Origin: a virus
Lineage: Duplodnaviria; Heunggongvirae; Uroviricota; Caudoviricetes
Virus record (IMG/VR): IMGVR_UViG_648276649_000002
Strand: one strand, 5' to 3'
Length of the DNA stretch: 28,032 nt
A program made the position numbers and the translations under genes. Numbering within the stretch: position 1 is the stretch's first letter; every line of letters begins with the position of its first letter. Shown here piece after piece: positions 4,266 to 26,605 of the stretch. The notes under the pieces are model-generated. The model saw nothing but the letters and a program-made list of their open reading frames with translations, made no database searches and was not told the DNA's origin.

Positions 4266-4747
4266 GACAGCAGCCCTCCCACCGTTTTACTGATATCGCT
4301 TAAGGCAGATGTTGCCATGTCCTGCAGATTATTCAGCTGCGCACTGAGATCACCAAACATATCGGACAGGGATTCATCCACCCGTTTGAGCGACAGGGTG
4401 AACTCAATCCGGCGCGGCATACCGTCGCGGAAAAACTCCGTTTTGGTCTGATTCAGTCCCTCAATCACATACATGCCGTAAATCGTGCCGCTGCCTTCAA
4501 TCAGGGGCCATGCTTTCCCCTGCTCTGCCATCTGCTCCAGTGCCAGCAATGACAGCCTGCCGCCTGTTATCTCCGGCATAAGAACACCAGAAAGCGTCAG
4601 CATGTCGTTGTCCGGTCCCAGAAACTGCGTGGATGGACGACGATTTACCCGACTGTTAGCCGCATGTCGCCAGCTGCGCTGATACTGCAGTTCCTGATAC
4701 GGCACGGTGCGCAGCATAAACACGTACAATCCCAGCACCATCATCAT
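4262..4747 (-). CDS. U: tail protein U
   Basis: 161-aa ORF between T and D, as in P2 FETUD. Confidence 0.8.
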   Translation of the reverse strand: MMMVLGLYVFMLRTVPYQELQYQRSWRHAANSRVNRRPSTQFLGPDNDMLTLSGVLMPEITGGRLSLLALEQMAEQGKAWPLIEGSGTIYGMYVIEGLNQTKTEFFRDGMPRRIEFTLSLKRVDESLSDMFGDLSAQLNNLQDMATSALSDISKTVGGLLS

Positions 4748-6300
4748 GCGTCGTATCCCCCCTGATCGCTGTAGTTACTCCTGGCTTTTGCCTTCAGCCT
4801 GCGTTCACGTTCATCAAGCTGGCGGGCCACCTCCCGCGCAATATCCTGCGCACTTTGTCCTGGCTGCGTCTGAATGATGATCTGCGTCGGTGCCTCAATC
4901 CGTTGAACGGGCGGCACAGTGGCTGCACGACTCACCATCGCTTCGCCGCCTTTCGCGGGAAGTGCCAAAGGATGTAACGGTGGAAGCTCTGTAGGCGCGG
5001 CAGCAACGCCCATCATTTCGGCAACAACCGCAGCCAGTGCAGCGGTATTTCTCCGGCTGGTCACGTTTGCCGGGCCGTTGACAATTTCCGGCCCGTTTTC
5101 ACCGACGATGCCAAACTGCCCGCGCGGGATATAGCCGCCGCTGTCATACATCCCCGCAAAGCCATATCCCCATGACGGAAAACCACCCGATGGCATCATC
5201 ACTTTACCGTCTGCATTCACCGTCGCAGGTTGCTGACGCGTCACGCTTTCCGGCAGTTTCGCCTTTGCGGCCTCTTTACTGACAATGCCGAGCTTCTCCA
5301 GCAACCAGGAAACGCCGGATTTCAGTGAGTCCAGCGGATGCATGACCATATTCAGCCCTTCCGCCAGTGCCTCCCCGAATCGCCGCCCCATTGCCGCTGC
5401 ACTCTGCAGTTCGGCAGAGGTCGACTTAACGGGCGTCAGCAGATCAGTAAACCAGCCCCACAGCGCCTGCACTTTGTCGCCAATCCACTGAAACACAGGC
5501 TTAAGTGGTTCGAATGCAGCACTGATGGGACCTGCCGCCGCTTTGAATCCTTCCACCACGCCACCGAGAAATGCGGTGATGGGTTGCCAGTATTTCCAGA
5601 CAACCAGCGCCACGCCCGCCAGTGCAGTAACCACAAGACCTATCGGACTGAGCAGAGCACCTAACAGACCAGATACGGCATACAGAGCAACGCGCAGCAT
5701 CGCCAGCGGACCGGATGCCAGCACTCGCAGCACCGCGCCTGCGGCGGTCAGTCCACCGCGCAGTACCGCCAGTGGATTCATAAACATCACAGCAACCGCA
5801 CGTAAACCGGATAATCCAGACCGCAATAGTGCAACCGGCGCACCTGCTACAGTTTTCAGGACATTTCCCGTCAGTGATGCCGTACGGCGCAAAGACGACA
5901 ACGGCGCAGTAAGTAAACCCGCTGCGTTACCCGATGAAGCAAGCCCGCGTCGCAGCACTGCCAGTGGAGCGCCAGCCAGCCAGGACAACGCGCTGCTGGT
6001 TCGTGTTACTGCTGCCGTAACGGAAGGTAACGTTTTGATGCCCAGCACAGAGAATCCCAGACGGATGACTGCCAGCGGCCCCAGCACTGCAGCCAGCGCC
6101 ACAGCCAGGGTGCCGAGTCCTACGGTAACCGCAGCCACAATAGCGGCTACTTTCATCAGTGTGCCCGTCAGTTCCGGGTTAGCTTCCACCCAGCGACGCA
6201 ACGCTCCCGTAACGCTTTTCACCGTGTACAGAATATCCATCAGCGGCATAACGTCAGTAACGGATGGCGGCCAGTGAAAAATGGTGGCGATATCAGCCAC
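4744..6300 (-). CDS. T: tail tape measure protein, shortened; no independent ATG, frame continuous with E'
   Basis: 518-aa Ala/Leu/Gly-rich ORF with hydrophobic repeats and a C-terminal MYDSGGYIPRGQFGIVGENGPEI-type segment; only about 1.56 kb lies between E and U. Confidence 0.7.
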   Translation of the reverse strand: MADIATIFHWPPSVTDVMPLMDILYTVKSVTGALRRWVEANPELTGTLMKVAAIVAAVTVGLGTLAVALAAVLGPLAVIRLGFSVLGIKTLPSVTAAVTRTSSALSWLAGAPLAVLRRGLASSGNAAGLLTAPLSSLRRTASLTGNVLKTVAGAPVALLRSGLSGLRAVAVMFMNPLAVLRGGLTAAGAVLRVLASGPLAMLRVALYAVSGLLGALLSPIGLVVTALAGVALVVWKYWQPITAFLGGVVEGFKAAAGPISAAFEPLKPVFQWIGDKVQALWGWFTDLLTPVKSTSAELQSAAAMGRRFGEALAEGLNMVMHPLDSLKSGVSWLLEKLGIVSKEAAKAKLPESVTRQQPATVNADGKVMMPSGGFPSWGYGFAGMYDSGGYIPRGQFGIVGENGPEIVNGPANVTSRRNTAALAAVVAEMMGVAAAPTELPPLHPLALPAKGGEAMVSRAATVPPVQRIEAPTQIIIQTQPGQSAQDIAREVARQLDERERRLKAKARSNYSDQGGYDA

Positions 6301-7196: not shown

Positions 7197-8036
7197 TTAC
7201 GCGCTGACCTGGCTGGAGAAATTCACCAGGTACTGATCGGTGATGCGCTGACGCAGCATCAGGTTTTCAAGTGGCGGCACTGGCGTGTAGTCGTAATCGA
7301 TGGTGAGTTTTCCGGCTTTCAGGGTGTCTTTGTCGTTCACCGACTCGTCCAGCCAGCAATCACCACCAATGAGATACCCCTGACTTACCAGGCTGCGCAT
7401 TTTGGCGCGGATACCCTCGATAATGTCGCGCGCCAGCGACGGGTTCAGCGGTTTGTCCACCGCCCACATGTGCGCTTCTGCCATTGTGTCCGTCAGCACC
7501 TGCGCCGTGCGAGTGTAGTTTTCGAAAGCAAAAAGCGGATCATCGCTCAGACAGCGGGAACCCCAGAAGCGGAAACCATCCTTGCGCACAAGCGTGGTGA
7601 CGTCGTTCTGGTTAAGCAGTCCCGCATCGGTTGCCGGGTCCTGCAGATCCCAGAACACATCAGCAGAAATTCCGGTGACACCGTTCACGCCCACGTTGGA
7701 CAGGCTTTTGTGCCATCCGGTCTGCTCGTCAATTTTGGCGCGCAGACCAAGCGCTCGGGCGGTGGCATATGCCGTTGCTTCGGCATTCAGCACCGTGTCC
7801 CAGCCAGTAAAGTCAGGCCAGATCAGCATCCCTTCGCGCTGGCTAAAGTTTTCACGGTAAGTGATCGCCTCCTGTACCGTCTTGCAGCCATACGCTGACA
7901 GGTAAGCAAATCCACGCAGGCTTTGCGCCACGCTCAGCAACTCAGTAGCTACCGCCTTGGTGTCGTGGCCTGGCACGCCGAGAATGCGCGGTTTAACGCC
8001 GAGCTGTGACTGGGCAGATAATCCAGTTGGTTTCAA
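7197..8036 (-). pseudogene. FI: tail sheath protein FI, 5'-truncated; retains about the C-terminal 280 of about 396 aa
   Basis: strong match to P2-type sheath from [11 protein letters not shown] onward to [12 protein letters not shown]; no N-terminal third and no ATG (the track start is TTG). Confidence 0.8.
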
Positions 8037-8148
8037 GGTCGCCCGTTTTCACCCGGCAAAGCCAGTTATCCCGGTCCACCTCGGTGACTACACCAGTGCG
8101 GATCAGGTTGGTGATAAGGCGCATGATTTCAGTCAGTTGTGCATTCAT
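7993..8148 (-). pseudogene. V: baseplate spike protein V, N-terminal fragment of about 45 aa then out-of-frame tail
   Basis: ATG at 8148; [36 protein letters not shown] resembles gpV N-terminus; runs into the FI remnant. Confidence 0.65.
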
Positions 8149-8159
8149 GAGAGCGATCC

Positions 8160-8188
8160 TTGCACAACCGGGTAGAGTGATGTAATAC
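8160..8188 (+). promoter_or_regulatory. candidate sigma70 promoter for the antisense moron ORF
   Basis: TTGCAC, 17-nt spacer, TAATAC on the + strand about 55 nt upstream of ATG 8244. Confidence 0.35.
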
Positions 8189-8196
8189 AGAGCGTA

Positions 8197-8214
8197 TGTA
8201 TGGAGAACCACACA
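8197..8214. promoter_or_regulatory. TGT-N12-ACA dyad, candidate Ogr-dependent late promoter element (pV)
   Basis: TGTatggagaaccacACA, centred about 57 nt upstream of the V' start codon; shares gaACCACACAAA with the dyad upstream of P. Confidence 0.4.
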
Positions 8215-8243
8215 AAAGAGAAACAATTTCTAAGGTATTTAAG

Positions 8244-9110
8244 ATGACACAAATCGCAATTTATGGATTTAATTTCACTAAAAAAATCACATTTGACGGT
8301 GGTGAGTTAACTCCTATTTTCAGTTCATGGAGTGAGTTAAAAAAAAATGGCTGGGATAATGATAGGTACATCCTCACTGGTTTTTTCAAACCAAACTCGA
8401 ATAACTACGCCACTCAACAGCAGCTTATTTTTGATTTACAAGCAGTTCTTAGTTTTATTGAACAAAAAAATGTAATCATTTCAGGAGAACTTGAAAATGA
8501 TGAAACCCCTTTCAATTTCAAACCATCTCTACCCAAAAAGCTTGACAAAAAAAGAGATAAGGGTGCGGGCATTATCATCATGGAAGATTATTTTGCACCA
8601 AACAGCCGAGAAAATTTTATTTGCTTAGCCATGGAAAAACTAAATAGTAAAGCCATGCTAAAACAAGATGCCTTTAGAACATCATTTTTTAAATCAATGC
8701 TAGCTTTCCGCGACTCAATAAATTATATCGACGTCAGATATTATTTATTATTCTCGGCACTAGAAGCACTTTGCAGATTTATTAAAAATGACTACTCCCC
8801 TGCCAAAACACCACAAATAATCACTCAGGTTTTAAAAGAATATGGTTTTAATGTCGAAAAAACAGGACATACATTAGCTCAAAGAAACATTATGCATTAC
8901 TGCAAACTCCGTCACTCGCTGTTCCACAATGGTAAATACATTGCCTATCTTGATGAAAAAAACTCAGATGGCAAAATTGAAATTCAAGATTACTCATCAA
9001 ATTTGAATTTACTGGTGCCACTTGTACTAATGAAATTCATAGGATTTGATGACAATTATATAAACTGGGACTCATGGATTGATAGGAATCCATTTATCAG
9101 TAAAAAGTAA
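8244..9110 (+). CDS. hypothetical cargo protein, possible HEPN-like (Rx4H) abortive-infection candidate
   Basis: 288-aa ORF from ATG 8244 with AAGG upstream; strongly AT-rich, antisense to the late operon; C-terminal YCKLRHSLFHNGK motif. Confidence 0.7.
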   Translation: MTQIAIYGFNFTKKITFDGGELTPIFSSWSELKKNGWDNDRYILTGFFKPNSNNYATQQQLIFDLQAVLSFIEQKNVIISGELENDETPFNFKPSLPKKLDKKRDKGAGIIIMEDYFAPNSRENFICLAMEKLNSKAMLKQDAFRTSFFKSMLAFRDSINYIDVRYYLLFSALEALCRFIKNDYSPAKTPQIITQVLKEYGFNVEKTGHTLAQRNIMHYCKLRHSLFHNGKYIAYLDEKNSDGKIEIQDYSSNLNLLVPLVLMKFIGFDDNYINWDSWIDRNPFISKK

Positions 9111-9136: not shown

Positions 9137-9583
9137 TTATCTCTGTAACCAATTTAGCAAAGCATCCTGAATGACAGTTTCCACATCATCATTTACGCCT
9201 AGGAGACGACGCTCTGCATAACGGACCTCCGGTCCTCTTCGACTGATGCGATCACGCAGGCCGTAGTGATGAACGCGGGCAATGCGCTGCACCTTACCTT
9301 CAAACTGCACGCTGGCAGAATCGGCGCTGGCGGCAGTTTTCAGGTATTTTGTGGTGCGCAGCTTTGTAAACATCTGACGTTTGATGCGCCCCTTTTTGCT
9401 GCGTGCTGTTACCCGTCGCGGCTCATAACTGCTGCCATCTGGATTGCGCTGCATCCTGATGTTCTGCTGCTGTGTCCGGCGCAGTTCCTGCGCCAGCTGG
9501 CGCATCATGCGGCTTCTTGCGGCTGGCTCCAGATTCGCCAGCAAGGCACTCAGCCAGTCGTCCACCTTCTGCAATTCAGCCAC
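9137..9583 (-). CDS. S: tail completion protein S
   Basis: 148-aa ORF in the gpS position downstream of R. Confidence 0.8.
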   Translation of the reverse strand: MAELQKVDDWLSALLANLEPAARSRMMRQLAQELRRTQQQNIRMQRNPDGSSYEPRRVTARSKKGRIKRQMFTKLRTTKYLKTAASADSASVQFEGKVQRIARVHHYGLRDRISRRGPEVRYAERRLLGVNDDVETVIQDALLNWLQR

Positions 9584-17923: not shown

Positions 17924-18928
17924 TTATTCTTCTGAATCATCATAAACATCCATTCCTTCGGTCTGATTTCTAATATAAGAAGCCCCCATAGAATTAGCAA
18001 TCGCAGTCCGAATTAACCCTACATGAGTGAAAAACACCCCTAACCTAGCACGCTTTAACTCAGACTCATCATCATAGTCATCTTCATTACTTATAATTCT
18101 TCTAACCATTGCCTTATCTTCGTCAATAGCCGAAGGTAGCCCACTCTTTAAAGCGTCAATACACTCACCTACAGTTATAATTTTATTTTTAATTAATTCA
18201 GAAAGCAAATCATCATAATTTTCATCATCAGATTTATTATCAGGTGGTAATTCACTTGCAGCTATCATTTTCAGCAATTCTACGTCAAGCATAGTTCCTC
18301 TATCTAGTCTGCTTGTCTCAACATACCCCTCACGCTCTGATAACACTCTTTCAAATTCGAAATCAACGACTTCAAGCAAAGCAGATACTCTATTAATTGC
18401 TCGCCTAAGAGGAAGTGGAACACTTTGCTCTTTTTTGTATTGCAGTTTATGAGATGCTGCAGCCCAAATATGCTGAGAAAGCGTTCGTATTTGCACCTCC
18501 ACTTTCATATTTTTAAAATCACTAAAGGATGGAACTCTTAGCCATTCTTCTGGAGGTTGTATTACATAATGATGAGATTGGTACCCAAATCTATCCTCAT
18601 CCAGTTCATCAAGTTTATTCTCTTGCTTCAAAATAATGAAATGTTCTTTCAGACAAGATATAACCTTTTCAACATCTCGCTTAAATAGCATTATTAATCG
18701 GATTCCAACATAATCATCCAAGTCAACTATTGACTCAATCTTTAGAGGTTTTCGGTTATCCTTATTAATAATAGAACTTAATGTTTTGACACGGCTTTCA
18801 ATTGGAACCCCTAAAGACAATTTATTCTCCGACAAAATAACATCAATTTGCTCAACCATAACTCGTCTGAACAATTCCGCAACTGAGCCGTAAATTGAAT
18901 GCTGTTCTTTTAATTCTTCGTCTGTCAT
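17924..18928 (-). CDS. RelA/SpoT-like nucleotidyltransferase (toxSAS-like) with uncharacterised acidic C-terminal domain
   Basis: motifs RVKTLSSIINK, DYVGIRLIM, GYQSHH and EVQIRTLSQHIWAAASHKLQYK in the N-terminal half; AT-rich; RBS-like AGGT upstream. Confidence 0.8.
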   Translation of the reverse strand: MTDEELKEQHSIYGSVAELFRRVMVEQIDVILSENKLSLGVPIESRVKTLSSIINKDNRKPLKIESIVDLDDYVGIRLIMLFKRDVEKVISCLKEHFIILKQENKLDELDEDRFGYQSHHYVIQPPEEWLRVPSFSDFKNMKVEVQIRTLSQHIWAAASHKLQYKKEQSVPLPLRRAINRVSALLEVVDFEFERVLSEREGYVETSRLDRGTMLDVELLKMIAASELPPDNKSDDENYDDLLSELIKNKIITVGECIDALKSGLPSAIDEDKAMVRRIISNEDDYDDESELKRARLGVFFTHVGLIRTAIANSMGASYIRNQTEGMDVYDDSEE

Positions 18929-19443: not shown

Positions 19444-19779
19444 ATGAACAATATTCCCCCTATACCACAGTTAGGAATTTATGTCTCAAAAATCGATCCC
19501 ACCCTACGTATCACTGTAACCGATGTTGATATTGTTGATGGTGAGGATGATTCTCCTGATGATGAATTGTTTTATTTAGTCCACTGGATCGAGGGGGAAG
19601 ATGAAAGTGATATGACAGCAATGGGATTTGAGCTAGACCCAGTAGAGTGGCAGGCTTTCGTTGAATCTGAGCAATTAGTGTTTGAGCGTGATCCGTACAT
19701 GGATTCAATCCCCGAAAATTCAAACTTGGCAAAGATTCGGGATTTTCTCATGAAGACTAAACAGAATGATCATTCGTAA
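19444..19779 (+). CDS. hypothetical small acidic protein
   Basis: 111-aa ORF with AAAAGGAG 7 nt upstream of ATG; very Asp/Glu-rich; sits where P2 carries old/tin. Confidence 0.6.
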   Translation: MNNIPPIPQLGIYVSKIDPTLRITVTDVDIVDGEDDSPDDELFYLVHWIEGEDESDMTAMGFELDPVEWQAFVESEQLVFERDPYMDSIPENSNLAKIRDFLMKTKQNDHS

Positions 19780-19971
19780 GTGTAAGCATCCATCAGGAAA
19801 ATGGTTTTGTAAGTGAATCATCAACTTTTAGAGAGTCTCAGACACTCCCACTTCTGCTTCTGACACAAAGCGGACGATCACTTATCAAAATAACCGCCCA
19901 CCTTACGCCTTATTTCACTCATTGCCCAAACTAGCCCCCATCAGAATGAATCCTCCTGGGGGCAACATTTC

Positions 19972-20205
19972 TTAATGCAGCCAGCTGTCGTCCTCCCACA
20001 CCTTCTGCATAATTTTCATCACTTGTTTTCTTTCTTCATCCAGTTGCAGTCCGGTTAGTTCCACACCGTTAGAGCTACCTTTGCGAATGCGAATTACCGT
20101 TTTGGGATACAGGGGGCGCAGATTGCGGTAAAGCTCGGATTCAAGTGCGTCCAGGGTAGACTGGCTAATCTTCTGCTCTTTATCGATCATTATTTCAATG
20201 CGCAT
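19972..20205 (-). CDS. DinI-family protein (Tum C-terminal-domain-like)
   Basis: 78-aa product from ATG 20205 (MRIEIMIDKEQ...VWEDDSWLH) resembles DinI; GAGGTGA upstream. Confidence 0.8.
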   Translation of the reverse strand: MRIEIMIDKEQKISQSTLDALESELYRNLRPLYPKTVIRIRKGSSNGVELTGLQLDEERKQVMKIMQKVWEDDSWLH

Positions 20206-20215
20206 AAAAGTCACC

Positions 20216-20404
20216 TCAGCTGATGACATCCATTGAGCGGTTGTATTCGTGGCTTCTGATTTTTGCCATGAGTTCATCAGTCAATTCAGAAACCCACTGC
20301 AGAGCCAGCCCCTTCTCTTCATCACTACACTCACTAGCCGCTACAAGCTTAAGAAAAAAATCAATGCGCTGGAGCTTCAAAGACTCCAAAAAATAGTCCT
20401 GCAT
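20216..20404 (-). CDS. small protein co-transcribed with the DinI-like gene; possible Tum N-terminal part
   Basis: 62-aa ORF with GGAGG 5 nt upstream of ATG 20404; its stop overlaps the DinI RBS. Confidence 0.5.
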   Translation of the reverse strand: MQDYFLESLKLQRIDFFLKLVAASECSDEEKGLALQWVSELTDELMAKIRSHEYNRSMDVIS

Positions 20405-20445
20405 CTTTCCTCCTATGACACCAAAACAATACTGTATGCATAACC

Positions 20446-20461
20446 ACTGTTTATATTTACA
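20446..20461. promoter_or_regulatory. LexA box (SOS operator)
   Basis: aCTGTttatatttACAGta fits CTGT-N8-ACAG with AT-rich spacer, 42 nt upstream of the small ORF start. Confidence 0.6.
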
Positions 20462-20556
20462 GTATATAATAATCTTACTGATGTAAAACGTTTTTTTACG
20501 TTCATCGGCCTGATATGCCTGGTATTATTAAGAGCACGAATTGTTAACCCGCGTAA

Positions 20557-22971
20557 TTAATACAGGTTCCGCCACTTATCATCTTCCTTCAGACGCTGGT
20601 TCCGATAGAAGATACGCAGGCCTGCTCCTGACGGAATACTGCCGCCGCGAAGGAGCAAATCGACTTCTTTCTCGCTGCCATCAAATCCCCTGGACTTCAG
20701 TTCATAGACGAGCTGCTGTCGCTGATGGTCTGTAATTCGCTGTTTGTAGTCTTTACGCCGTTTCGGTTTCACCTGGCGTAACCTTGCAGCCAGTTCCCGG
20801 CGCTCTTTTTTGCTCATACTGTGCAGGTAATCGTGCAACTCTTTGTCATTCATACGGGTAATATCCGTTCTGGAGTCCCCATCAGCTGATTTGTCTTTCC
20901 CTTGTTGGTTCAAATTTTCAGCAAGGGGACAGTTATTGCCACGAGTCCAAGGGGCGCAAGCGCCCTGGTCGGCTGCCGCCTCCTGAACGTCAACGGCCTT
21001 ACGAACCATTTTCCACTTCACTGCATGAGTGCAGATCTTGCCCTCTGCAATGGGTGACCAGATGCCATAAATACGAATACCGTGATCACCATAGGCGGTC
21101 GGCTCTTCGTTGATTTCATAAGCGGTTCTGATCAAGTGATATTTGCGGGGAACCAACACGCCGCCCTGCTTCATAATGTAGGTGGCAAAACAGCCAGCAT
21201 CAGCAGCAGCCAGAATGGCATCAAGACGCGGATCATCCAGTACCGGCGCACCTGCTTTTTTGTCACCCTGCTGCCTTGCCGCCTGACCAGCCAGCAATCG
21301 CAGTTCACGGTAAGCCTGACGCCCCGGAATGCCAAAGAAGCGGAATTGCTGAACACGATGCAGAGACGCCCAGGCATTAACGTATTCAGCGTTATCACGC
21401 AGGGATTTACCCGTTTCCTTGCTGATCTCGCCAGCCAGACCACGCCCGTCAATGTTCTTACTGATGTATTTCGCGATGTAGCTTGTCGGCGTTCCTTTGC
21501 GCGGGTTAATCAGCTCAGACTTAAAGCGTGGCCCCGTGTTATTGCCCAGTTCCTCGCGGTCTTCACGGATGGCAAACTTACGCAGTAATGCAGTGATGGC
21601 GCGGCGGTCTTTTTTACGCATGAAGCACATGAGATGCCAGTGCACAGTACCGTCATGATGCGGCTCAGCCACCCGCACGCCATACCACCGCAATCCGGCT
21701 TTGTGCATCGCCTTACGAAATGCAGCAAACATGCCGACCAGATAATCACTGCTTTGTCTTACCGTCGCATTTGTCCAGGTCGGGTTTGGTCTGCCGTTAT
21801 TGAGCGTGGAATGGAAACGTGACGGACAGGTGATGGTGTAGAAAACGGCGCAGTCACCGCGCATTTCCGCGATAAGCTCCAGACCTTTAACGCAGGCCAT
21901 CATCTCATTGCGGCGATGTGCCGGGTTGCTGCTGCTGGCGTTTACCACATCTTCCATATCCAGCGTGTCTCCGTCTTCGTTCACCAGTTCATGAGAACGG
22001 AAAAACTCCAGCGACTTGCGGCGCTGCTCACGTTTATGCGTCACTGCTTCATAGCTGACATAGGGAGATGCTTTTTTGCTGACCAGACAGACAGCACGCA
22101 ACTGCTCTTCCCGCCATTCGCAACGCATCTTCCACAATTTTCGATACCACCAGTCGGCGCAAAGCATACGTGCCAGCGAACCCGGTATGAGTTCATAGGG
22201 CACAGGTTTGCGGCGGTTTCTTTTCCGACGAAGTTTCTCAAACGCAGGCGGGATAACATCCAGACGCAGGGTTTCCGCAGCCACCTTTTCCCATGTCTTG
22301 CGGATTTCTTCTGGCTTAACGTCATCGGTGGCGTACAAATCACCACAAGCGGCCTCAAGACACATGCTCATATGCGCTGCTACCAGGGTGGACAGGCGTT
22401 TCACCTGATCCTGGCTCATTTCAGGCAGGATCAGCAGCCCCTCCAGCCCTTGATGGCTTGCCATAAAACGGAAAGAAACAGATAGCTGACTGTCACGTAC
22501 ACAATCCAGTCGCTCCAGACATGGCTTAATCGTCTCACGCAAATAGCGGGAATAAGCCTTTGGCCTGCCCAGGCTGCTGAAGTATTCGATACGTTGCATC
22601 AGCGGCTTGCTGATATGAGAAGGCTGGGCGCTGACATCTGCCAGAATGACCATGTCCGGGTTAAAACGCTGCTGCTCATGCGCCAGCTTTGCCCGGCTAA
22701 TGAGCTTATCCTGCTCCATTTCGCGCTGGACAGGATCACGGGATTCATTAAAGAAATAACGCTCCCAGACCTGCTCACTCAGTGCCTCGCGGCGCAGTTG
22801 TTCCTGCTCGTTATCGGCAGCGTACAGAGTGATCAGGTTTGAAAGTGCAGACTCCGGCGCAACTTCCGCCGGATCCAGATAAGGGTTAATGGCCTTTTTC
22901 GGGCCGTTCCATGAAAATGCTGCGGCAGCCTCGTTAAAGCCGCTAGAGTTGCTCATATCGTCATGACTCAT
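20557..22971 (-). CDS. A: replication initiation protein A (rolling-circle nickase)
   Basis: 804-aa ORF, P2 gpA-like size and position; overlaps the dam stop. Confidence 0.9.
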
Positions 22972-25912: not shown

Positions 25913-25979
25913 TGGCTTGTGGCGAGCCGTTGTTTGTCGTGATTAGTAGTGAAGGCTCCAAAAGAACACTTCTGGTTCA

Positions 25980-26008
25980 ACTTTAAGATCGCTTTTGGAA
26001 TCTGTCAA
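25980..26008 (-). promoter_or_regulatory. candidate early lytic promoter pR
   Basis: - strand TTGACA, 17-nt spacer, TAAAGT, directed into apl-cII. Confidence 0.5.
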
Positions 26009-26035
26009 CGAATTTTGGATTTCTTTGGAGGACTT

Positions 26036-26605
26036 GTGGATTTCAATAGCGGCGGTAAGAAAGCCATAGAACGTTTAGTTGAAGCATATGGGTTCGGTAC
26101 CCGTCAGGCTCTCTGTGATCATTTAGGTGTTTCTAAGAGCACCATGGCAACGCGCTATATGCGTGATATTTTTCCAGCAGATTGGGTAATCCAGTGCGCC
26201 CTTGAAACGGGCACCTCGCTTAATTGGCTAACAACAGGGCATGGTTCAAAGCAAGCATCAGCAAATACAAATACTATAGAAGTAGAAAAATATTTATTGT
26301 CTGATGGAGCATTGCAGAAAGACGGTTTTTATATTTTTGATAAGGGATTTCTACCCTCTACGTTTAAAAAACCTTTTGTCATCACAGATAACAATTCTGA
26401 ATTTATTTGTGATAAAGAATTTGATGATATACGTGATGGTAAATGGGTAATAAGTATTGATGGCGAAATAACGATCCGTGACATTACTCGTTTACCCGGT
26501 GGAAGAATCTTCGTCGAGGGTGGAAACAGAGCCTTCGAATGCAAGATAGAAGACATTGAAATAATTGGTAAAATTATAAGTTTAACAGTCAAGTATGTTA
26601 AATAG
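26036..26605 (+). CDS. cI: CI-like immunity repressor (186 type)
   Basis: GTG start 26036 after GGAGGA; LVEAYGF...CALETGTSLNWLTTG and C-terminal ITIRDITRLPGGRIFVEGG resemble 186 CI. Confidence 0.85.
   Translation: MDFNSGGKKAIERLVEAYGFGTRQALCDHLGVSKSTMATRYMRDIFPADWVIQCALETGTSLNWLTTGHGSKQASANTNTIEVEKYLLSDGALQKDGFYIFDKGFLPSTFKKPFVITDNNSEFICDKEFDDIRDGKWVISIDGEITIRDITRLPGGRIFVEGGNRAFECKIEDIEIIGKIISLTVKYVK

Follow-up and report, generated by a model that had tools for sequence, protein, structure and literature searches.

The tum locus of a Fels-2-like prophage: a probable SOS induction operon in the split tumA-tumB form

The module at positions 19972-20461 of the window (the whole stretch of 28,032 nucleotides that was analyzed) is very probably the SOS induction operon of a Fels-2-like prophage of the P2/186 family, present in the split tumA-tumB form. 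The initial annotation had described a 62-aa ORF and a DinI-like ORF behind a LexA box and had left two alternatives, a natural split module or a tum gene broken by a frameshift. The two ORFs are a natural split module and not a frameshifted tum. The split layout as such is already documented for Fels-2 and PSP3, in both of which tum is divided in two (Lemire et al. 2011, PMC3121763), and the present copy is nearly identical to that of Fels-2. The points that are new here are minor ones, namely, the profile-level homology of the Fels-2-type TumA, a colicin-like double LexA operator, and the decoupling of TumA from CI. The 62-aa protein is recorded as "hypothetical" in hundreds of clusters, yet it is likely to be the induction trigger of a very common enterobacterial prophage family, and both the double operator and the absence of TumA/CI co-variation provide leads on induction threshold and prophage cross-talk. 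A literature search for tumA/tumB by name returned no papers, and tum is not mentioned in Nilsson 2011.

Position and layout of the module

The whole module is encoded on the minus strand and immediately follows a gene for a P2/186-type replication endonuclease (gene A; 804 aa, 20557-22971, minus strand), with which it shares the direction of transcription. Read 5' to 3' on that strand, the stop codon of gene A is followed by a -35 hexamer, a -10 hexamer that forms part of LexA box 1, LexA box 2, the 62-aa ORF, and the DinI-like ORF. As tum of 186 is likewise found downstream of gene A, the proposal that the module occupies the place of tum is borne out. The same neighborhood recurs among related loci, for which a comparison set of 40 genome loci was assembled from Escherichia, Citrobacter, Enterobacter, Serratia, Kluyvera, Pantoea, Erwinia, Tatumella, and other genera; a gpA-like gene stands upstream of the tumA-type gene in 35 of these 40. 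About one-quarter of complete E. coli genomes match the module region. The region is approximately 97% identical in DNA to Salmonella phage Fels-2, with the same order of gene A, 62-aa ORF, and DinI ORF. Bunny, Liu and Roth 2002 is said to be the primary source on tum of Fels-2.

The tumA-type gene (20216..20404, minus strand, ATG start) encodes 62 aa, and the tumB-type gene (19972..20205, minus strand) encodes a 77-aa DinI-family protein. The features named in the initial annotation are thus present within 19972-20461, apart from the edge of the LexA box, which extends 1 to 3 nt past 20461, and the -35 hexamer, which also falls outside that span. The two ORFs are indeed in different frames, as had been noted, with an offset of +1 and 199 nt from start to start, and tumB begins 10 nt past the tumA stop. 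The presence of two ORFs, separated by 10 nt and in different frames, where 186 encodes a single polypeptide (Tum, 146 aa), identifies the split tumA/tumB variant rather than the fused 186 form. In keeping with that variant, the ORFs are adjacent and co-oriented behind one predicted LexA-controlled promoter, the Tum-N-like product being encoded first and the DinI-like product second.

A natural split of tum

The frameshift alternative would make the two ORFs the debris of a 186-like fused tum and would leave the SOS switch of a defective prophage dead. It draws on the different frames of the ORFs, on their summed length of 62 and 77 aa, which approaches the size of 186 Tum (146 aa), and on the loss of tail genes from this prophage. 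Against it, the same ORFs occur, identical or nearly so, in the inducible Fels-2 and in hundreds of prophages of E. coli, Klebsiella, and Salmonella, and both are equipped with an ATG and a Shine-Dalgarno sequence of their own. Across the 40 loci, a DinI-like ORF, where one follows tumA, starts 9 to 13 nt later, may occupy any of the three relative frames, and always has a separate G-rich Shine-Dalgarno sequence, and intact relatives show no single fused frame that differs from the window by one indel. Both ORFs also experience strong purifying selection, with dN/dS values far below 1, at 0.03 to 0.19 for the 62-aa ORF (against 34 species-level homologues), which is therefore a real gene, and at 0.06 to 0.12 for the DinI-like ORF. 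Finally, close relatives of the N-terminal half of 186 Tum themselves occur as stand-alone 63-aa genes annotated as "Tum protein." The conserved layout, the variable frames, and the low dN/dS exclude a frameshifted tum for all practical purposes, and we regard that origin as scarcely credible. The natural split, by comparison, agrees with the conservation of the two-ORF layout in Fels-2, PSP3, and many prophages of Enterobacterales.

The same loci bear on how the two genes relate to each other in function. No DinI gene follows tumA in approximately 18 of the 40 loci, and in about 4 more (L012, L023, L026, and L047) the DinI-like gene is truncated or interrupted, at 8 to 60 codons; in both groups, tumA and the operator of the predicted LexA-controlled promoter are intact. 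The occurrence of tumA without a DinI gene in so many loci marks it as a self-sufficient unit. The small N-terminal unit is an autonomous functional gene, the DinI-like gene is an optional companion, and the fusion in 186 is one variant.

It could instead be proposed that antirepression needs both products, with TumA and TumB forming a heterodimer that rebuilds a 186-like Tum, or that the DinI-like protein is itself the active antirepressor. The two parts are one polypeptide in 186, the genes are tightly linked, with a hairpin that may tie translation of tumB to that of tumA, and about half of the loci conserve both genes together. This proposal is nonetheless very unlikely given the loci that retain the predicted promoter and tumA while lacking a complete DinI-like gene. 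It also sits poorly with two observations from other phages. Phage 186 makes, from an internal start, a separate 77-aa DinI-like product that is annotated as only modulating induction, and induction of Gifsy prophages was not significantly altered when dinI was removed by nonpolar deletion (PMC3121763).

The 62-aa protein and the N-terminal part of Tum

The 62-aa ORF is preceded by an AGGAGG Shine-Dalgarno sequence 4 nt 5' of its start. Its product is identical to RefSeq WP_001154431.1 and matches STM2728 of Fels-2 at 60 of 62 residues. It belongs to a large family, comprising 484 clusters in one protein search and, at the 50% level, 87 in another, of which nearly all named members are labeled "hypothetical protein."

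The initial annotation had proposed aligning both ORFs to 186 Tum and had made the interpretation depend on a similarity of the 62-aa ORF to the N-terminal region of Tum. For the DinI-like ORF the alignment is direct (41% identity to residues 71-145, E = 3e-24). For the 62-aa ORF, BLASTP against 186 Tum gives no alignment, a result that is overturned by profile comparisons. The two proteins match the same PHROG families in reversed order of strength, with the 62-aa ORF matching phrog_698 at 6e-38, phrog_8554 at 1e-8, and phrog_1993 at 2e-3, and 186 Tum matching phrog_1993 at 1e-22, phrog_8554 at 1.4e-11, and phrog_698 at 2.4e-5, always via its N-terminal 60 residues. When a 42-sequence profile that includes divergent members of the 62-aa family was compared by hhalign with an alignment of relatives of the 186 Tum N terminus, residues 4-45 were aligned to residues 4-45 with a probability of 96.8% and E = 3e-10, and hmmsearch with the same 42-sequence profile scored 186 Tum at 33 bits. 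A shallow hhalign profile (Neff 1.4) gave P = 0.0016 and a probability of 16% against 186 Tum, so the divergent family members are needed for the match. PSP3 TumA is barely matched by the 62-aa family profile. The 62-aa product can therefore be placed as a homologue of the N-terminal, non-DinI part of Tum by profiles, though not by BLASTP. The motif shared by the family and the Tum N terminus reads roughly E-x3-(Q/E)R(I/V)-(E/D)-hydrophobic x3-(R/K)L-x6-C-x3-(D/E)(K/R)-x-(L/I)A(L/I)-x2-(I/V)(A/S)E(L/I).

An AlphaFold2 model of the 62-aa protein (pLDDT 88) predicts a helical hairpin, with helices at residues 2-23 and 28-61 and the conserved Cys in the turn. Foldseek comparison of this model with the PDB returned generic helical hairpins only, none at E ≤ 0.001, and the family profile likewise matched no PDB sequence. 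The 62-aa ORF has no match in Pfam, NCBIfam, or PADLOC, and a deep-profile protein search with the family gave close relatives only among the matches listed. A subset of distant TumA-family proteins (P0266, P0276, P0281, P0296, P0303, P0304, P0305, and P0313) carries Gly-rich C-terminal tails that end in LQ or FQ (for example, ...NPQNGGESGRGALQ); the protein of the window is without such a tail.

A family of this kind invites the question of whether the 62-aa protein, while SOS induced, does another job, such as that of a toxin, an inhibitor of division or replication, or a modulator of RecA or LexA, in which case induction, if any, would take another route. Its "hypothetical" label in all databases and the empty Pfam, NCBIfam, and PADLOC searches are compatible with such a role, as are the generic predicted fold, which lacks an informative structural neighbor, and the fact that the sequence does not co-vary with CI type. 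Several lines of evidence nevertheless render it improbable. The profile homology is to the non-DinI part of 186 Tum and is aligned from the same N-terminal position, the locus and the predicted architecture of the LexA-controlled promoter are those of p95 in 186, and the tumA-type gene stands beside gpA (in the 35 of 40 loci given above) in P2-like prophages that carry a 186-type CI. Furthermore, the upstream gene of PSP3 is stated to carry antirepressor activity (personal communication quoted in PMC3121763). A presumed role of the 62-aa protein as CI antirepressor is thus the reading that we retain.

The DinI-like protein and the junction

The DinI-like character of the second ORF, which had been read from the sequence at 78 aa, stands, while its length is corrected to 77 aa (78 codons including the stop). 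The product matches Pfam PF06183 at 6.6e-23 and 81.3 bits, against a gathering cut-off of 24.2, and it aligns along its whole length with E. coli DinI (residues 1-75 to residues 1-77 of PDB 1GHH; E = 2.7e-6), which together place it in the DinI family. Its score lies below the NCBIfam equivalog cut-off (42.7 versus 111), so that it is a family member and not an orthologue of chromosomal dinI. It is identical at 77 of 77 residues to STM2726.1 of Fels-2, annotated as "DinI family protein." RecA-filament binding and SOS modulation by this protein are suggested by its family membership.

At the junction between the genes (20210..20227, minus strand), the tumA stop codon TGA (20218-20216) overlaps the tumB Shine-Dalgarno sequence GAGGTG, as the initial annotation had recognized. 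The overlap lies inside a small hairpin, GTCATC-AGCTGA-GGTGAC, which is followed by TTTTATG and is conserved in Fels-2. It is conceivable that this hairpin couples translation of tumB to that of tumA or attenuates tumB.

A further GC-rich hairpin with a 7-bp GCCCCCA/TGGGGGC stem lies 3' of tumB (19934..19963, minus strand) and was considered as a possible operon terminator. It is not convincing in that role, with a z-score of only -1.27 and no clear T run. Homology with Fels-2 extends precisely as far as the tumB stop codon, and this hairpin is accordingly part of the variable cargo.

Promoter and double LexA operator

The predicted SOS promoter, equivalent to p95 of 186, consists of a -35 hexamer TTTACA (20482..20487, minus strand) located 17 nt 5' of a -10 hexamer TACTGT (20459..20464, minus strand), which is the same -10 as that annotated for 186 p95 and coincides with positions 1 to 6 of LexA box 1. 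This distal box, TACTGTAAATATAAACAGTG (20445..20464, minus strand), agrees at 17 of 20 positions with the consensus TACTGTATATATATACAGTA. At the level of sequence, the promoter thus overlaps a LexA operator, in the form TTTACA-N17-TACTGT with a 17/20 box starting at the -10. The CTGT-N8-ACAG core at 20447-20462 occurs once within the window; the bare core is not significant when taken alone, being found also in 30 of 100 shuffles. The 20-mer TACTGTAAATATAAACAGTG, by comparison, is the sole site in the 28-kb window with three or fewer mismatches to the consensus, and no such site arose in 100 shuffles. The claim of a near-consensus LexA box upstream of the 62-aa ORF is further strengthened by conservation, as a box with five or fewer mismatches is retained at the corresponding position of every one of the 41 loci examined and is situated 38 to 97 nt 5' of the homologous ORF in all 40 genome loci.

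A generic sigma-70 promoter scan called no promoter at the module, because TACTGT matches TATAAT at only three of six positions. The predicted -10 is assigned on the basis of conservation and by analogy with the annotated p95 of 186. In about 36 of 41 loci, TT(T/C)ACA precedes box position 1 by 16 to 18 nt, nearly always 17.

The operator is double. LexA box 2 (proximal), CAGTGGTTATGCATACAGTA (20430..20449, minus strand), begins exactly 15 nt after box 1 and matches the consensus at 14 of 20 positions, that is, with six mismatches, and the 16-nt cores of the two boxes share one base. A second box with six or fewer mismatches is found at exactly +15 nt in approximately 26 of 41 loci, and a count of the double-box pattern gave 20 of 48 loci. 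Such boxes are rare elsewhere, since about 69 20-mers with six or fewer mismatches occur in 128 kb of loci and almost all of them are operator boxes. A single LexA box is present in 186, in PSP3, and in the loci of Pantoea and Erwinia.

The arrangement resembles that of colicin operons. The cea gene of ColE1 has two LexA boxes at a 15-nt offset, located at or after the -10 (CTGTATATAAAACCAGTGGTTATATGTACAGTA, just 5' of the colicin E1 start), and the pattern CTGT-N8-(A/C)CAGTGG-N8-ACAG is shared between the module and the colicin operators, with 30 of 38 bases identical to ColE1 by manual count. Box 2 of Fels-2 is identical to the proximal box of ColE1 cea at 20 of 20 positions. The likeness is limited to the operator, as the genes downstream are unrelated. 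Two LexA dimers bind the double boxes of colicin genes cooperatively and thereby prevent untimely lethal expression (PMC2994835), and by analogy the same logic may suit a trigger of prophage induction.

CI as the presumed target and a proposed mechanism

In phage 186, induction depends on Tum, an anti-CI factor expressed from the LexA-regulated promoter p95, which sequesters CI (PMC7708051). By analogy with 186 (PMC7708051, PMC3121763), the presumed target of TumA in the window is the 186-type CI immunity repressor encoded at 25949..26605 on the plus strand (Pfam Phage_CI_repr at 3.3e-31 and Phage_CI_C at 4.7e-29); Apl- and CII-like genes are also present in the window. Placing the module into this physiological context, the following sequence of events can be hypothesized. 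In undamaged cells, LexA would sit on the two overlapping boxes, which cover the -10 and the first 20-odd transcribed bases, and the promoter would be off. Upon DNA damage, RecA-stimulated self-cleavage of LexA would free the promoter, and a single transcript would then encode the 62-aa helical-hairpin protein of the TumA type and the 77-aa DinI-family protein of the TumB type. TumA, as a homologue of the Tum N terminus, would most likely bind the 186-type CI, block its binding to the operator, and derepress the early lytic promoter. TumB would most likely adjust the SOS signal in the manner of DinI, through RecA filaments, and would be dispensable for antirepression. LexA binding, the interaction of TumA with CI, and the role of TumB are proposed here from work on 186 and on PSP3/Fels-2 (PMC3121763, PMC7708051).

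A comparison of TumA with CI across phages gives an additional perspective on selectivity. Against the repressors of 186, Fels-2, and a further E. coli prophage, the CI of the window shows 31 to 46% identity. Phages with a TumA 96.8 to 98.4% identical to that of the window carry CIs that are only 38.6 to 58.4% identical to its CI, and an E. coli prophage with an identical TumA carries a 292-aa CI that is 46% identical. Near-identical antirepressors are thus combined with repressors of 38 to 58% identity, which indicates that antirepressor and repressor do not co-vary. The CI of the YZLc4-1 prophage (L006, 13802-14680) has 292 aa and contains a duplicated N-terminal HTH segment.

Such decoupling is unexpected if TumA is immunity specific, and either TumA targets a conserved surface of CI or the specificity lies elsewhere. 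It could be speculated, as a tentative reading that we hold to be doubtful rather than probable, that Fels-2-type TumA is a broad-range antirepressor directed at a conserved surface on heteroimmune 186-type CIs and that the double operator releases it only at high SOS levels. If this were true, one copy of TumA could trigger several co-resident P2-like prophages, and the copy in a tail-less, defective prophage would be included among those able to do so.

State of the prophage and its cargo

The prophage is defective. The tail deletions reported in the initial annotation are real, with genes V, W, J, I, H, and G missing, the sheath gene reduced to a 3' remnant, and a tape-measure ORF of 518 aa that has a GpE-like N terminus. 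The deletions lie at approximately 7197-9110 and 4744-6300 of the window. Near 8015-8036, a remnant of the baseplate gene V abuts the 3' part of the sheath gene, and from the S gene (9137-9583) to the tail tube gene only a 304-aa ORF and the 279-aa 3' sheath remnant are present. An intact relative carries V, W, J, I, the tail fiber gene, and a full sheath gene. A search of 5,426 complete E. coli genomes found the tail deletion junction in none of them.

The SOS module, CI, gene A, and the head and lysis genes appear intact. With switch, repressor, replication, head, and lysis functions in place and the tail deleted, DNA damage would be expected to derepress the prophage, and possibly to lyse the cell, without release of infectious phage. 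The SOS switch is therefore probably still inducible, without yielding infectious particles on its own.

Additional genes were observed around these regions. The 304-aa ORF between S and the V remnant (8196-9110, plus strand) lies on the opposite strand and has no match in Pfam or PADLOC; the intact relative has an opposite-strand gene for a "hypothetical protein" of about 288 aa between its S-type gene and V (L006, 31890-32756). The variable cargo that separates the tumB stop from the portal gene includes a 334-aa RelA_SpoT-domain protein (17924-18928, minus strand), which matches Pfam RelA_SpoT at 7.6e-20 and the PADLOC candidate defense family PDC-S33 at 1.8e-16, and a 111-aa ORF (19444-19779, plus strand) that is assigned to DUF8087 by PGAP.

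Comparison with known systems

The closest counterpart is STM2728/STM2726.1 of Fels-2 (NC_010463), in which the gene order, the promoter, and the double LexA operator are as in the window. It differs in a few base changes in LexA box 2, with GCA in place of the ATG of the window in the spacer, in the cargo 3' of the module, which is an orf97-sized gene in Fels-2 and the DUF8087 and RelA_SpoT-domain genes in the window, and in CI, which is only approximately 39 to 41% identical between the two.

PSP3 (NC_005340) similarly has a LexA box, a small ORF, and a 77-aa DinI-like ORF downstream of gene A. Its tumA (60 aa) is annotated as "similar to 5' end 186 tum; UV induction of prophage" and its tumB as "similar to dinI and 3' end of 186 tum." PSP3 TumB resembles the DinI-like protein of the window over its whole length, whereas PSP3 TumA belongs to the 186-like subfamily (phrog_1993) and can hardly be aligned with the 62-aa protein. 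The two ORFs of PSP3 share one frame and are parted by a stop and one codon, while those of the window are in different frames, and the single LexA box of PSP3 is perfect, unlike the two boxes found here.

Phage 186 shares the site after gene A and a -10 TACTGT inside the LexA box, its p95 being annotated as TTCACA-N18-TACTGT. It differs in that the N-terminal antirepressor part and the C-terminal DinI-like part of its 146-aa Tum are fused in one frame, in its single LexA box, in the presence of orf97 downstream, and in an N-terminal part too diverged for BLASTP.

A more distant parallel is provided by the Gifsy/Fels-1 operons (GfoA, GftA, and FsoA), which likewise combine a LexA-repressed DinI homologue with a small antirepressor of a noncleavable repressor. 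In those operons dinI comes first, neither the antirepressors nor the repressors share sequence similarity with those discussed here, and the prophages are lambdoid rather than P2-like. Antirepressors of the Gifsy/Fels-1 type can act in trans on other prophages (PMC3121763).
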